Shown: positions 57,079 to 62,062, counted from the stretch's first letter. The stretch: 64,000 bases of DNA from Minisyncoccota bacterium (GCA_040905715.1 JBBDRA010000003.1:7075-71074), one strand, 5' to 3'. Notes: generated by a model not told the origin, from the sequence alone. A program made the numbers and translations.

Positions 57079-57106
57079 TTGACACAGCATCAAAGCTGTA
57101 TATAAT
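57079..57106 (+). promoter_or_regulatory. rRNA promoter TTGACA-N16-TATAAT about 440 nt upstream of 23S
   Basis: ttgacacagcatcaaagctgtatataat. Confidence 0.65.
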
Positions 57107-57394
57107 AGCAAGACAAACTTATGGCAATAGGAACTTGTTTGTATACTTGTTTGAGTACGTAGAGCGGATGGCACCAAACTCCTCACGGAGAACCTAGACG
57201 GTGTACCGCTTCACAGGCGGTTTTTCTTTTGTTAACGTAGGTTGTGCGTCAGAAAAGAAAACCGCATCAGCTGCTAAAAATAGTAGGAAGACAGTAAAAT
57301 ATTCTTGCTCCTCACATGGGTCGCTTACGCTTGAGTGGTTGTATGACTTCTCCCGTTCGTACGTGCGAGCCAGGTGAGAGGCCGGAATAGGGCC

Positions 57395-57414
57395 TGTCCT
57401 TTGACAACTAAATA
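57395..57414 (+). promoter_or_regulatory. boxA-like antitermination element TGTCCTTTGACAACTAAATA (copy B) in the 23S leader
   Basis: rrn boxA-like; near-identical to copy A at 51266. Confidence 0.6.
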
Positions 57415-59517
57415 GTTCTAGCAATGACATGAGCCTCATTGTTAGAACGAGGTAACAAACAGCAAATGAAATGTTGATACATTGATTGTATGTATCAGAG
57501 CAAAACATTGGTTAATGAATTTCCTAATAGGAAATTAAAGGGCGTATGGTGGATGCCTTGACTTCAAGAGGCGATGAAGGACGTGGTACGGCTGCGATAA
57601 GCTTCGGTGAGGTGCCTAACAACCTATGAACCGAAGATCTCCGAATGGGGAAACCCAATTCCGTTTAAGCGGGATTACCCTGTCGTTGAAGAACGGCAGG
57701 GAGTACACCCGGGGAAGTGAAACATCTCAGTACCCGGAGGAATATAGACAAATATGCATTCCCTTAGTAGTGGCGAGCGAAACGGGAGGAGCCTAAACCA
57801 CTGTGCTTGCACAGTGGGGTTGCAGGGTAGAAGTGCGGGGAATCCCGGATTTATTATTATTGTTAGCAGAATCAGCTGGGAAGCTGAACCCAAGGGGGTA
57901 ATAGTCCCGTACGCGAAAACAATAATGTATTTCTGACTTCTATTCCTAAGTAGTTCAGGACACGAAAAGCCTGAGTGAATCTGCCAGAACTAACTGGTAA
58001 GGCTAAATACTCTTGAAGATCGATAGTGAACAAGTACCGTGAGGGAAAGGTGAAAAGAACCCCGATAAGGGGAGTGAAATAGATCCTGAAACCATACGCC
58101 TACAAGGAGTCGGAGCGGGCGCTTGCGTCCGTCACGGCGTGCCTATTGAAGAATGAGCCAACGAGTTGATATATGCGGCTTGGGTAAGCTCTGAGAGGAG
58201 CGCACCCGTAGGGAAACCGAGTGTGAATAGCGCGTATGCTCCACAATGTGGGGTCGTCGTATGTATCAGACCCGAAACCAGGCGATCTTGCCATGGGCAG
58301 GGTGAACTCCGGCGAAAGCCGGAGGGAGGCCCGAACCGAATGGCCGTGCAAAACCATCGGATGACCTGTGGTAAGCAGTGAAAAGCTAATCGAGCTTGGT
58401 AATAGCTGGTTCTCTCCGAAACAGCTTTAGGGTTGGCGTCCGGATTACCCGCTTGGGGTAGAGCTACTGGATGGTCTAAATAGGGGCTACGCCTCATTAG
58501 ACCAATCAAACTCCGAATACAAGCGGTCAACTTCCGGGCAGTTAGACCATGGGCGCTAAGGTCCATTGGTCAAAAGGGAAACAGCCCAGACCTCCAGTTA
58601 AGGTCCCTAAATCTATGCTAAGTGCACTTAAGGTGGTGGAATTTCTCAGACACTGAGGAGGTTGGCTTAGAAGCAGCCATCCTTTAAAGAGTGCGTAACA
58701 GCTCACTCATTTAGAGATTCTGCGCCGAAGATAATCGGGGCTAAGCATAGTACCGAAACTGAGGATGTTTACGATCTCCGGATCGTAAGCGTGGTAGGAG
58801 AGTATTTCACGCTGCGATGAAGCTGAAGGGGTGACCCACAGTGGAGCGCGTGGAAGTAAGAATGTTGGCACAAGTAACCGCAAGGCAGGTGAGATCCCTG
58901 CCCGCCGAAAGACTAAGGATTCCTTGGCGATGGTGATCAGCCAAGGGTTAGTCGGGGCCTAAGGCAATCCCGAACGGGGGAGCCGATGGAGACTATGGTT
59001 AATATTCCATGACCCCCATATAGTCCGATTGGAGTGACGGAGCGCTGTACTTCTCGCATATTAGCGGATTTATGTCCTTTCTGTGAGGCCGCTCTCTAGG
59101 TAAATCCGGAGAGCATAAGCCGAGCAGCGAGGCGAATCCGTCGTACGCGACGGAGAAGGAGGAGGAGCGCGCTTCCAGGAAAAGCTTCTCAGGATAACTA
59201 TATGGGGCCCGTACCAAAACCGACACAGGTAGTCAGGTCGAGTAGACCAAGGCGAACGAGTGAAATGTCCCTAAGGAACTCGGCAAAACAGCGGCCGTAC
59301 CTTCGGTATAAGGCCTGCCTTCACTGCTTCGGTAGTGAAGGCCGCAGCTAAAGATTCCCTGGCAACTGTTTACCAAAAACATAGCTCCCTGCGAACTCGA
59401 TAAGAGGATGTATAGGGAGTGACGCCTGACCAATGCCAGAAGGTTAAACATGGGCTGTACACGCGTTTACGTGTGTGCCGACTTTTGTATGCCCTGGTGA
59501 ATGTCGGCCGTAACTAT

Positions 59518-60298
59518 AAACCTGACCGTTGTAGTTACGTAAATAAACTTTGCTATATGCGGGAAAACCCGGATGCATCTTGACGGTACTCGCTTCTTGT
59601 CGAAGAAGCAGTAACAAGCCGTCAAGTGAGCTTCGCATGAGCGCCGGACGATCCGCAGGAAAGACTTCCGCAAGTCACATCTATGGAAGGATATAAGGTG
59701 CAATCAGTAAAACCAGAGCATGGATATTACATAGCCGGCTTTACTGACGGAGAAGGAAGCTTCAACGTTTCGATAAAAAAGAGAAAAGATTATCGAAATA
59801 CGTGGAAATTAACAGCTTCCTTTAACATTTCTCAACGAGATCGTGTAATACTCAGCTTCATTAAGAAGCAGTTACAATGCGGAACGCTCCGCACACGGAA
59901 GGATGGGGTGGTGTACTACGAAGTAACTAACCCAACTTCCTTGTACGAGAATGTTATCCCATTCTTTACACGATTTCGGTTTCTGTCTGCTAAGAAAAAG
60001 CGAAATTTCTCGTTATTTTGTCAGATAGTAGAGAAGATGTACCGAAAAGAACATCTCTCAGAGGAAGGATTTCAAGAAATTCTTCAACTGAGGGAAAAAC
60101 TCAACAAGGGTATTGGAAGGAAGAGAAAGTACGATATTACAAGTTGTAGTTAATGCGGAAGAATCCTCAGAGACTATACGCAAAGTACCACTGAAACAAT
60201 GATTGGAAGCCGACTGTTTCAGGGTAATGATATAGTCCGATCCTTATGGCGACATAAGGTCTGAGCGTCAATCTGACGCTTGGTAGAAAACAGAGACG
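59518..60298 (+). mobile_element. Group I intron in 23S domain IV (helix 69-71 region, E. coli ~1917 site) carrying a LAGLIDADG ORF
   Basis: Exon junction CGTAACTAT | AACGGTCCTAAGGTAGCG restored when 59518-60298 is removed; 5' exon ends in U and the intron ends in G. Confidence 0.8.
59683..60153 (+). CDS. Intron-encoded single-motif LAGLIDADG homing endonuclease
   Basis: YIAGFTDGEGSF LAGLIDADG motif; 156 aa, basic. Confidence 0.8.
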   Translation: MEGYKVQSVKPEHGYYIAGFTDGEGSFNVSIKKRKDYRNTWKLTASFNISQRDRVILSFIKKQLQCGTLRTRKDGVVYYEVTNPTSLYENVIPFFTRFRFLSAKKKRNFSLFCQIVEKMYRKEHLSEEGFQEILQLREKLNKGIGRKRKYDITSCS

Positions 60299-61404
60299 AA
60301 CGGTCCTAAGGTAGCGAAATTCCTTGTCTGGTAAGTTCAGACGCGCACGAATGGCGTAATGACTGGGGAACTGTCTCAGGGGCATGCTCGGTGAAAATAC
60401 AATACCAGTGAAGATGCTGGTTACCTGCAGCAGGACAAAAAGACCCCAGAAGCTTTACTGTAGTTTGATATTGGATGTACAGTTTCTCTGCGAAGTATAG
60501 GTGGGAGACTTTGAAGCGTTGGTTTCGGCTAGCGTGGAGTCGTCAGTGGGATACCACCCTTAGAACCTGTATATTCTAACCCGGTGAGAAAAACTCATCA
60601 GGGACAGTATCTTGCGGGCAGTTTGAGTGGGGCGCTCTCCTCCCAAAAAGTAACGGAGGAGCCTATAAGGTCGGCTAGGCGCGAATGGAAACCGTGCCGA
60701 TAGTGTAATGGCACAAGCCGGCTTAACTGTAAGACGTACATGTCGAGCAGATGCGAAAGCAGAGCATAGTGGTCCGACGGTTCGTCTTAGAGACGGCCGG
60801 AGCTTAACGGATAAAAGCTACTCTGGGGATAACAGGCTGGTACCGCCTAAGAGTTCATATCGACGGCGGTGTTCGGCACCTCGATGTCGGCTCGACTTAT
60901 CCTGGCGCTGGAGAAGGTGCCAAGGGTTCGGCTGTTCGCCGATTAAAAAGTCACGCGAGCTGGGTTCAGACCGACGTAAGTCAGGTTGGTCTTCTATCCG
61001 CTGCAGGCGTAGATTCTTGAAGAGATTCGCTCCTAGTACGAGAGGGCCGGAGTGAACTGACCTCTGGTGTATCAGCTGTCACGCCAGTGGCACTGCTGAG
61101 TAGCTATGTCGGGAATGGATAACCGCTGAAAGCATCTAAGCGGGAAGCCAACTCTAAGATTAGGAATCATAGATCCCTGGGAGATGACCAGGTTGATAGG
61201 CACTAGGTGTGCGCACAGTAATGTGCTTAGCCGAGGTGTACTAATTCATCATATCCTATTAGGAAATTTGGATGCCAGCGTCCGCACCACACAGGTGTGG
61301 CGCGGGCGAAAAGTGTTTTGCTCTGTTAGATGGAATGAATGCGTTTGTTTCATTGTTAGTTTGTAATATTGAGTTGTGTGTATTGGGTGTATACGGGATG
61401 TAGC

Positions 61405-61460
61405 CGGTCGTGCTTTCTTAGTAGTGGCGAGCGAACAGAATGTGAGTGAGGGTACGCCTT
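61405..61460 (+). repeat. Short duplicated 23S-like fragment in the 23S-5S spacer
   Basis: tgctttcttagtagtggcgagcgaacagaatgtgag mirrors 23S 57763-57795 (cattcccttagtagtggcgagcgaaacgggagg). Confidence 0.5.
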
Positions 61461-61624
61461 CGCCGGCTCGACCATAGCGCTCCGTCATGGACGGAGAGTG
61501 GGGGAAGGACCCATCATCCCGATTTCTGAAATTAGCGCCAGTTCTTTTCACGCACCACTAACGTGGTGCCTAATATACACAGCTCAATAATACGATCAAA
61601 AAGTAACGCGAATTGAGTATTGTA

Positions 61625-61734
61625 TGCTGGTGCTTTGGCGAGAGGGGTACACCTGTTCCCATCCCGAACACAGCAGTTAAGCCTTTCAGCACCGATGATA
61701 GTCTTTCAAGGCGAAAGTAGGTCGGCGCCAGCAT
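61625..61734 (+). rRNA. rrf: 5S ribosomal RNA
   Basis: GCTGGTGCTTTGGCGAGAGGGGTACACCTGTTCCCATCCCGAACACAGCAGTTAAGCC..GTAGGTCGGCGCCAGC. Confidence 0.85.
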
Positions 61735-62030
61735 AGAGTACTTAATTTTCTTTTCAGATATAATTTCGGAATATATTTAGACGGTAGCGAAAGTAAGCAA
61801 AGCTTGCTTTGACTGCATTCGGACGAAATGTGAATGCTTCGCATTCCCGTTTCGCTCCTCATTTGTCAAAGTAGGTCGGCGCCAGCACTACAAGAGCACT
61901 TCTTGTTTTCTAATTCACAGCAAAGCTGTTCACAAGAAAACAAAGTCGCACTACCAGAGCACTTCTTTATCCCTAATTCACTATCGTTCATAAGGGCTAA
62001 ATGTCGCATAGAGTACTCAATTTTCTCCAT
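61735..62030 (+). repeat. Degenerate direct repeats derived from the 5S 3' end and flanking sequence
   Basis: aaagtaggtcggcgccagca recurs at 61869; catagagtact[tc]aattttct at 61733 and 62005; actac[ac]agagcacttctt at 61887 and 61939. Confidence 0.55.
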
Positions 62031-62062
62031 AAACAATCTCCTTCAAGGAGGTTGTTTTTGTT
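62031..62062 (+). terminator. rRNA operon terminator
   Basis: aacaatctccttcaaggaggttgtttttgt. Confidence 0.75.

Follow-up and report, generated by a model that had tools for sequence, protein, structure and literature searches.

A 23S-5S rRNA unit with an L1917-type group I intron and partial rRNA copies around its 5S gene in a Patescibacteria genome

The 23S-5S unit and its group I intron

The analysed DNA was a 64-kb window of a metagenome-derived assembly (GCA_040905715.1, JBBDRA010000003.1:7075-71074). The feature region comprised positions 57079-62062 on the + strand and holds a 23S rRNA gene followed by a 5S rRNA gene. In the whole-window Rfam scan, LSU_rRNA_bacteria was found at 57525-61263 (+) with 2421 bits, covering model positions 1-2925, and 5S_rRNA at 61626-61733 (+) with 71.4 bits, covering model positions 1-120. 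The 23S match was 3739 nt long, compared with 2925 positions in the model, and the surplus was accounted for by one block of 781 nt. This block showed the features of a group I intron and contained an open reading frame (ORF) for a LAGLIDADG protein. The unit comprised the following parts:

57525-59517, + strand: 23S exon 1 (Rfam LSU), ending at E. coli U1917 in helix 69
59518-60298, + strand: group I intron of the L1917 type, 781 nt, with no P2, a complex P5, an ORF in the P6 loop and a terminal G
59524-59539, + strand: internal guide sequence, consisting of the P10 strand GACCGTT (59524-59530) and the P1 strand GTAGTTACG (59531-59539)
59683-60153, + strand: single-domain LAGLIDADG gene in the P6 loop, 156 aa, Pfam LAGLIDADG_1
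60154-60298, + strand: 3' half of the ribozyme core, with P6' (TGCGGAAG), P7, P3' (GCAAAG), P8, P9, P9.1 and the terminal G
60299-61263, + strand: 23S exon 2 (Rfam LSU)
61264-61625, + strand: 23S-5S spacer, 362 nt, structured (minimum free energy z = -5.2), with no tRNA genes
61626-61733, + strand: 5S rRNA gene (Rfam 71.4 bits)
62031-62062, + strand: intrinsic terminator closing the 23S-5S unit (hairpin 62031-62057 with a 12-bp stem and a 3-nt loop, followed by a T-run)

The insert at 59518-60298 was flanked by ...GGCCGTAACTAT and AACGGTCCTAAGG..., and its removal restored the exon sequence exactly. At the spliced junction, GTAACTAT is followed by AACGGTCC. The T at this point corresponds to nt 1917 of the annotated E. 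coli rrl, as placed by a 16-mer, and lies in the loop of helix 69. The end of exon 1, CGTAACTAT, pairs with GTAGTTACG to form a P1 of nine pairs. P1 was 100% paired, with a U.G at the splice site in 24 of 24 sequences. For P10, GACCGTT pairs with AACGGTC, the first seven nt of the 3' exon. P10 was 96% paired in the alignment of 24 sequences, and its compensatory changes tracked the exon variants (GATC with AACGATC, GACG with AACCGTC). The core consisted of P3 (CTTTGC/GCAAAG), P4 (TGCGG/CCGCA), P6 (CTTCCGCA/TGCGGAAG), which encloses the ORF, and P7 (GACTAT/ATAGTC). J1/2 (TAAATAAA) passes directly into P3, so that there is no P2. P5 was extended, with about 85 nt of extra helices between P5 and P5'.

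Covariation was assessed in an alignment of 24 homologous introns without their ORFs, with slid partners and 500 shuffles as controls. Standard pairs were found in 85% of the cells, compared with 35-41% when the partners were slid by one to three columns. None of the 500 shuffles matched any of five pairing measures. Pairs with changes on both sides were found in P3 (4), P6 (7) and P9 (6). The paired fraction was 97% for P3, 100% for P4, 87% for P6, 90% for the conserved P7 and 100% for P9; P8 falls in a poorly aligned stretch. The intron ends in ...GAGACG/AACGG (the slash marks the junction). The terminal G was present in 51 of 57 homologues, including that of the window. According to the junction calls, the remaining 6 of the 57 L1917 homologues (L002, L004, L005, L033, L050 and L064) held a terminal A instead. 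The Rfam model Intron_gpI (RF00028) matched with 35.2 bits (E 3.5e-07), aligning only the P7/P8/P9 core. Judged by its predicted structure, the insert is a real group I intron of the L1917 lineage with an IC1-like core, which would be removed by splicing. It was the only intron in this 23S gene. A first-pass annotation of the same DNA had proposed a 781-nt group I intron at the hot spot near position 1917. The covarying P1, P10 and P3-P9 helices and the rrl numbering agreed with this proposal, and the covariation and the Rfam group I model favoured an intron over an expansion segment.

The 23S gene was found apart from any 16S gene, as the first-pass annotation had stated for unlinked rrn genes. 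Rfam gave zero SSU matches within the 64-kb window, and a search for four universal 16S motifs was likewise negative. tRNA genes were not detected anywhere in the window. An independent Logan assembly contig, L001, encodes the vWA protein of the window and continues 8 kb farther with genes for FtsW, a sugar transferase, an epimerase, a peptidase, SecD and SecF. It also showed no SSU match in Rfam. With L001 included, the stretch free of 16S comprised 57.5 kb upstream of the 23S-5S unit and about 10.2 kb downstream of the 5S gene. Any 16S gene on the 23S strand is located more than 1.5 kb away, and protein genes lie directly upstream of the 23S gene. This distance of 1.5 kb is said to be the criterion of Brewer et al. 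for unlinked rRNA genes.

The vWA protein was 100% identical to an NCBI entry labelled 'Candidatus Paceibacterota bacterium'. The host was therefore assigned to the candidate phyla radiation (CPR), or Patescibacteria, in line with the CPR-like lineage suggested by the first-pass annotation. Of the 51 intron-bearing loci in the comparison set whose sequence reaches 2.5 kb or more upstream of the 23S gene, 42 gave no upstream 16S in the 16S-motif search. The nine loci with an upstream 16S motif were all non-CPR. Brewer et al. (bioRxiv 10.1101/705046) count Patescibacteria among the clades whose rRNA genes are exclusively unlinked. In those genomes, as in the window, the 23S-5S pair is set apart from the 16S gene, and there was no difference in kind. 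The locus had been described as atypical in the first-pass annotation. This was not upheld, because the comparison loci without an upstream 16S and the published surveys of insertions and of unlinked genes make it typical for the lineage.

The intron-encoded LAGLIDADG protein and its counterparts

The 156-aa protein in the intron had been recognised as a LAGLIDADG protein in the first-pass annotation, and profile, structure and fold comparisons led to the same assignment. It matched PF00961 (LAGLIDADG_1) with E 7.8e-22 and 78.5 bits, compared with a cut-off of 23.1, and the whole profile was covered. Among solved LAGLIDADG enzymes in the PDB, the best match was at about E 3e-37, and the halves of I-LtrWI and I-SmaMI matched at E 1e-36 to 1e-37. 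Both halves of each two-domain PDB enzyme matched the protein. The single-domain I-Vdi141I was matched by sequence with E 1.5e-15. The motif IAGFTDGEG was located at residues 17-25 and includes the acidic residue E24. G19, D22, G23, E24 and G25 were invariant in 26 sequences, and 57 invariant columns of the family were retained in the protein of the window. The AlphaFold2 (AF2) model reached a predicted local distance difference test score (pLDDT) of 89 and showed one domain with the element order H-E-E-H-E-E-H. In Foldseek, I-Vdi141I (template modelling score, TM, 0.81) and I-CreI (TM 0.78) were found, with I-TnaI also among the best matches.

Relatives were numerous. More than 4000 were present in the protein collection, the best of them with 65-78% identity, and 258 loci were confirmed in the species-level genome collection. 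The related-locus counts refer to 80 loci examined out of these 258. In all 80, a homologous ORF was flanked on one side by 23S sequence that matches the final 300 nt of exon 1 and on the other by 23S sequence that matches the initial 300 nt of exon 2. The junction was identical to that of the window in 57 of the 80, with introns of 715-880 nt. The hosts were mostly Patescibacteria, accompanied by a few Thiomargarita, Nitrospirales, Acidobacteria, Planctomycetes and Omnitrophota. Many homologous ORFs (P0002, P0040, P0048, P0052, P0057, P0060, P0103, P0105, P0113 and P0119) continue into the ribozyme core. The C-terminus of these homologues, ...(E)SSET(I/T)RKT, for example ...EESSETIRKT, corresponds to the conserved P7 strand TCCTCAGAGACTATACGCAA read as protein. 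In many relatives (L035, L038, L056, L016, L023 and others), the stretch between the exon 2 start and the 3' end of the 23S gene measured 2-5 kb, compared with about 0.6-1 kb otherwise. Several further insertions must therefore lie downstream of L1917 in those relatives; the gene in the window holds only the one.

The putative target of the endonuclease is the intron-less helix-69 junction (GGCCGTAACTATAACGGTCC, TGTCGGCCGTAACTATAACGGTCCTAAGG). The sequence GGCCGTAACTATAACGGTC was partly palindromic, with 12 of 19 positions by our own count. Variants of the target were GGTCGTAAC...AACGATCC and GGCGGTAAC...AACCGTCC. From these features and from the homologous enzymes, the following course of events may be proposed. 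After transcription, the intron would fold, and its guide sequence would pair with both exons, in P1 with the final 9 nt of exon 1, where the U.G lies at the site of cleavage, and in P10 with the initial 7 nt of exon 2. Two transesterifications would then release the intron and restore helix 69. The 156-aa protein would dimerise like I-CreI, I-Vdi141I and I-TnaI, as suggested by homology. The dimer would cut the partly palindromic helix-69 DNA of an intron-less allele, and repair would copy the intron into the cut allele, which constitutes homing. Dimerisation, cleavage and homing are thus predicted by analogy.

Haugen et al. (2007, PMC1995217) described L1917 introns from Synechococcus sp. 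C9, where the intron of 743 nt encodes 181 aa, and from Thermotoga subterranea, where one of 774 nt encodes 168 aa. These introns carry a single-motif LAGLIDADG ORF that starts in P6, an IC1-like core without P2 and a complex P5. Compared by means of the published descriptions, the intron of the window (781 nt, 156 aa) shares with them the site, the size class, the single motif, the ORF starting from P6, the missing P2 and the complex P5. It differs in its host, Paceibacterota, and in the ORF, which stops before P7. For CPR genomes, Tsurumaki et al. (2024, PMC11270868) give insertions in 82% of the 23S genes and a concentration of LAGLIDADG_1 genes at the 23S positions 1917, 1931, 1952, 2593, 2604 and 2657. 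The enzymes are mostly single-domain according to this survey, and I-ShaI is reported there as active and homodimeric. The insertion class '23IS6' at position 1917 corresponds to the intron of the window in clade, site class, LAGLIDADG_1 domain and single-domain architecture. Group-I-like flanking RNA was likewise seen in this class by Rfam at sub-threshold E-values (PMC11270868). I-ShaI, the tested CPR enzyme, is described there as most similar to I-CeuI; the protein of the window is known from its sequence.

With I-CreI, I-Vdi141I and I-TnaI, the protein of the window shares a single LAGLIDADG domain of about 150-170 aa, the same fold (TM 0.78-0.81) and the encoding in an rRNA intron. The identity to these enzymes was only 22-32%, and the target sites differ, with I-CreI at L2593 and I-TnaI at L1931. 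The best sequence matches of the protein were half-domains of monomeric enzymes of the I-OnuI family. The Coxiella burnetii element Cbu.L1917 is reportedly a group I intron in the 23S gene, going by the title of Raghavan et al. 2007, and its name implies position 1917. According to the same title, one of two Coxiella elements reportedly lacks the usual terminal G. This recalls the 6 of 57 homologues that end in A; the intron of the window ends in G. Cbu.L1917 is not known to carry an endonuclease gene. L1917 introns with LAGLIDADG genes, their abundance in CPR 23S genes and the unlinked rRNA genes of Patescibacteria are all already published.

Leader region and neighbouring genes

Upstream of the 23S gene, a leader with several regulatory motifs was found. 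Together with the spacer, it also provides the two strands of a processing stem:

57079-57106, + strand: promoter-like site TTGACA-16-TATAAT, 12/12 consensus match, about 420 nt upstream of the 23S gene
57205-57230, + strand: intrinsic-terminator-like hairpin (57205-57221) with T-run, ACCGCTTCACAGGCGGT TTTTCTTTTG, within the putative 23S leader
57395-57414, + strand: boxA-like element, core CTTTGACAA at 57399-57407, 126 nt upstream of the 23S gene
57480-57535, + strand: 5' strand of the 23S processing stem (leader and helix 1), inverted repeats I1 and I2
61251-61341, + strand: 3' strand of the 23S processing stem, inverted repeats I1 and I2

The first-pass annotation had given the 23S gene its own promoter. 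A perfect promoter-like site is indeed present at 57079-57106, and by consensus match it was the sole such site in 56800-62200. The terminator-like hairpin at 57205-57221 (+), which was absent from the first-pass annotation and is added here as a correction, was the only one of its kind in the leader. It sits between the promoter-like site and the boxA-like element, and thus upstream of boxA. Because of this hairpin, it is uncertain whether the promoter at 57079 drives the 23S gene, and the site is regarded as a plausible 23S promoter candidate. The promoter-like site and the hairpin about 100 nt farther on would set the ends of an RNA of about 115 nt ahead of the 23S gene (57079-57230). A small RNA gene at this place was considered and rejected; no Rfam match was obtained between the promoter and the hairpin, and the fold of 57112-57232 was unremarkable (z = -0.47).

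The boxA motif, with at most one mismatch, was present on the sense strand upstream of the 23S gene in 23 of 55 loci, and in the antisense control in 0 of 55. This supports the assignment of the leader element as boxA-like, with a putative antitermination function through NusB/NusE binding and terminator read-through, and bears out the boxA of the first-pass annotation. A 19/20 copy of the boxA-like 20-mer, GTCCTTTGACAATTAAATAC, was located at 51266-51285 in another non-coding stretch. In the 1.4 kb around this second copy (50690-52083), the sole ORF of at least 90 aa was one of 118 aa with a TTG start. A hidden RNA gene near it (50600-52100) was also rejected, as Rfam gave only a chance-level U12 match. 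The leader and the spacer form the expected long processing stem that encloses the 23S gene. In I1, 57480-57507 pairs with 61314-61341 (28 nt, 82%), and in I2, 57518-57535 pairs with 61251-61268 (18 nt, 94%).

The unit was surrounded by the following protein genes:

54675-54953, + strand: GIY-YIG domain ORF, 92 aa, Pfam E 1e-14, small and free-standing, directly upstream of the putative rplJ
54983-55480, + strand: putative rplJ ORF, identified from sequence and position
55546-56067, + strand: putative rplL ORF, identified from sequence and position
56243-56881, + strand: 212-aa ORF with no Pfam match
from 62119: vWA-domain gene, downstream of the 23S-5S unit

Partial rRNA copies around the 5S gene and their possible origin

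Short copies of rRNA sequence were detected in the 23S-5S spacer and behind the 5S gene. In the region downstream of the 5S gene, four units consisting of a 5S 3' tail and a trailer were distinguished, the first of which is the native 5S end:

57763-57781, + strand: genuine 23S helix 13/14 segment (domain I), CTTAGTAGTGGCGAGCGAA, the source of the spacer copy
61417-61435, + strand: spacer copy of the helix 13/14 segment, exact 19-mer CTTAGTAGTGGCGAGCGAA
61611-61627, + strand: 5S leader, inverted repeat I5, pairing with the trailers of units A and D
61714-61751, + strand: unit A, native 5S 3' tail and A-type trailer (GCATAGAGTACTTAATTTTCT)
61868-61918, + strand: unit B, 20/20 copy of the 5S tail and a variant trailer with a 4-nt insertion
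about 61940-61981, + strand: unit C, degenerate tail (ACAAAGTCGCA) and B-type trailer (29/34, 85%)
about 61998-62026, + strand: unit D, degenerate tail (AAATGTCGCA) and A-type trailer (20/21, 95%), just before the terminator

The 19-mer in the spacer was significant against shuffles (z = 8.2). The first-pass annotation had described a copy of about 35 nt. The copy exists, but its length was overstated, because the flanks of the exact 19-mer do not align. Among the comparison loci covering the 23S-5S spacer, a comparable helix-13 copy was found only in L031, also from Patescibacteria, where AGTAGTGACGAGCGAA is located about 116 nt past the 23S end. At L031:7892-7922, the helix-13-like sequence AAGTAGTGACGAGCGAAA lies inside an element of about 170 nt that is closed by a 20-bp stem. 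The L031 copy takes the fold of the genuine helix 13, but the stem that closes it differs, and in its loop it comes nearer to the copy of the window than to the helix 13 of L031 itself. For the copy of the window, the helix-13 fold was not the minimum-energy structure. None of these hairpins was more stable than shuffles. A homologue of the spacer element of the window was not found by nhmmer in about 200 loci. A structural mimic of helix 13 holds for L031 and not clearly for the window.

L031 (7782-8351) and L203 (1-282) hold two tRNA genes between 23S and 5S; the spacer of the window is without them and retains a T-rich stretch and a hairpin about 60-80 nt before the 5S gene. One tRNA match in L031 (8065-8177) was 113 nt long, about 40 nt over normal, which suggests an intron-containing tRNA gene. 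A degenerate second 5S gene in the spacer of the window (GCCGGCTCGACCATAGCG...CCCATCATCCCGA), 5S-like by eye, was rejected. Its local alignment score equalled the shuffle mean, and neither Rfam 5S at E<=10 nor an nhmmer profile of about 180 5S genes gave a match.

Behind the 5S gene, the tail copy of 20 nt was exact (61714-61733 = 61868-61887) and was matched by nhmmer to 5S positions 84-108 with E 0.0011. A further tail candidate at 61773-61797 was not significant (E 0.97). The repeats of the 5S 3' end reported in the first-pass annotation, three or four in number and degenerate, are therefore real, and consist of one exact 20-nt copy and two degenerate units. No other copies of the post-5S units were present in the window. 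A dispersed repeat family was rejected, as there were no extra copies in the window and Tandem Repeats Finder made no call. The leader together with the 5' strand of 5S (helix I) formed predicted duplexes with unit A (dG -35.5 kcal/mol), unit B (-26.0 kcal/mol) and unit D (-22.4 kcal/mol), with z values of -3.4 to -7.8. Unit C showed no significant pairing with the 5S leader. The RNA from 5S to the terminator was more stably folded than its shuffled versions (z = -5.4), and in this fold the leader pairs with unit D. Two relatives could be compared at this place. L203, with a vWA protein of 45% identity, showed a plain order of tRNA, tRNA, 5S, terminator and vWA with no repeats. The contig of L202, with a vWA protein of 64% identity, begins inside the post-5S region; the 5S-tail-like GGGAGGCAGCCGCCGAGA lies just before its terminator, in the position equivalent to unit D.

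Partial 5S copies in other genomes were surveyed in 110 non-redundant 5S loci with 500-nt flanks. A comparison set of 120 loci was obtained by scanning metagenomes for a 26-nt pattern from the 5S core. None of these 120 was closely related; the identity at the 23S end was about 70-87%, and there was no match to the spacer or the post-5S region. A partial 5S copy beside the intact gene was present in 13 of the 110 loci (about 12%). Pieces of the 5S 3' end were always located downstream, with none of the 110 loci showing one upstream. Pieces of the 5' end were located upstream, with one downstream exception. Six loci held both fragments, seven loci, including the window, held only a 3' fragment, and none held an upstream 5' fragment alone (Fisher p = 8e-7 for co-occurrence). 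The six loci showed a nested arrangement, in which an intact 5S lies between the 5' and 3' fragments of a second 5S:

L033:7341-7651: nested 5S
L007:2205-2536: nested 5S
L067:4285-4715: nested 5S
L062:8849-9250: nested 5S
L038:10536-10916: nested 5S
L116/L138: nested 5S

The two outer fragments of L033 meet in loop C, at 5S positions 34 and 37, and the inner gene has inverted-repeat arms of about 45 nt. The outer leader is complementary to the outer trailer, and neither is related to its inner counterpart. Because of this difference between outer and inner flanks, L033 is not a simple tandem duplication; it gives the appearance of one complete pre-5S unit set within another. A role of the outer fragments as functional split 5S RNAs was rejected, with few compensatory changes overall and seven disrupted pairs in L067. 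The outer 5S copies are probably decaying or a mere scaffold.

Altogether, the locus is most probably a single 23S-5S transcription unit of Candidatus Paceibacterota, set apart from the 16S gene and split by an L1917 group I intron. This high probability applies to the whole explanation jointly, that is, to the unit, the intron, the endonuclease and the duplication scars. Several points weigh against it. The terminator-like hairpin separates the promoter-like site from the 23S gene. Splicing and endonuclease activity are inferred, and the ORF of the window ends just before P7, where many homologues continue into the core; its altered C-terminus may be a defect. The recurrence of the helix-13 copy in L031 would not be predicted by pure chance duplication. 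Unit B agrees with the 5S tail in 20/20 positions though its surroundings have diverged, and a tail-like element is retained in L202 where the window has unit D; these two observations could reflect selection or gene conversion and not neutral scars. Furthermore, the intron score of 35.2 bits is under the Rfam gathering threshold of 50. This score also favours a reading of the 781-nt insert as an expansion segment or an RNase III-excised intervening sequence, as do the non-intron insertions at other sites in CPR 23S genes (PMC11270868). Such an origin has almost no probability. The Rfam threshold is a detection limit and not a structural criterion, the ORF in P6 splits the core, and the homologous L031 intron reaches the gathering score with 50.3 bits. 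The insert shows the full, covarying group I set (P1 with its U.G, P10, P3-P9 and the terminal G), and the exons are exact after its removal. It splits helix 69, where there is no room for an expansion, and the same lineage has been described as a group I intron (PMC1995217). The insert has a multi-helix core in helix 69, and not the one long stem-loop, in place of a helix tip in helices 9, 25 or 45, of RNase III-type intervening sequences.

The 19-nt helix-13 copy and the 5S-tail units are best read as scars of small local duplications and insertions of rRNA sequence. The pattern in the window is one of local tandem duplication, because tail and trailer were duplicated together. The process looks recurrent around the 5S genes of this group and not like a product of the endonuclease. 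The repeated homing or gene conversion invoked in the first-pass annotation was not upheld, with only one intron present and nothing to link the endonuclease to the 19-nt copy or the 5S-tail repeats; gene conversion could be the cause of the perfect identity of unit B. It is highly improbable that the repeats are assembly artefacts, for instance through the tandem joining of strain variants. The DNA comes from a metagenome assembly, and related contigs often break in or near rRNA genes, as L001 and L202 do, which both start there. L001, however, was 100% identical to the window across all 947 nt of the 23S end, spacer, 5S and repeats. The exact repeats of just 19-20 nt are below usual assembly k-mers, the units differ by indels and substitutions, and similar partial copies were found in many independent assemblies. 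The units and the helix-13 copy could also be functional RNA elements under selection, serving as alternative 3' strands of the 5S processing stem or as a decoy or binding site that mimics the 23S hairpin. The pairing of the leader with A, B and D, the fold onto unit D, the perfect tail in unit B and the genuine-like L031 hairpin, with its different closing stem and its loop resembling the copy of the window, would all agree with this. However, L203 manages with a plain 5S, trailer and terminator, unit C does not pair significantly, the copy of the window does not adopt the helix-13 fold at minimum energy, and the hairpins are no stabler than shuffles. Since the spacer element also has no nhmmer homologue in about 200 loci and the helix-13 copy occurs in two genomes only, such a function is considered very unlikely.

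The nested loci suggest another origin of the post-5S repeats, as the decayed outer half of a nested 5S. A complete pre-5S unit, with processing stem and 5S, would have been inserted into or captured at an older 5S gene, whose 3' part was left as units B-D and whose 5' part was lost. The six nested loci with their significant co-occurrence, the arrangement in L033 with its abutting fragments, own inner arms and unrelated outer flanks, and the seven loci with a 3' fragment only, the window among them, are consistent with this, as is the good 5S-tail-like sequence of L202 at the position of unit D. In the window, however, a 5' fragment was not found upstream by local alignment (score equal to the shuffle mean) or nhmmer. 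The A and D trailers share 95% identity, and the trailer of B is of the same design, which fits a tandem duplication and is unlike L033, and just 20 nt of 5S are recognisable in unit B. A nested origin is therefore regarded as unlikely for the window, and local duplication is retained as the preferred reading. A broader proposal would take the partial rRNA copies of the window, the six nested loci and L031 as footprints of an undescribed, recurrent process in CPR. A complete pre-5S unit would be inserted or captured at a break in the resident 5S, in loop C, rescuing the cell and leaving the old halves as flanks. This proposal is speculative and considered quite unlikely; some such flanks might then have been retained as scaffolds of the processing stem.

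The main features of the locus are textbook for CPR. The window adds one more, apparently intact, member to a very large endonuclease family, and the enzyme may be considered a meganuclease candidate with helix 69 as its target. The covariation-backed structure and the exact boundaries aid rRNA annotation, with modest practical value. Only the small repeats of rRNA fragments around the 5S gene are mildly unusual. Partial 5S copies in about one of eight loci, oriented as expected for insertion or duplication and sometimes nested, may merit a short survey.

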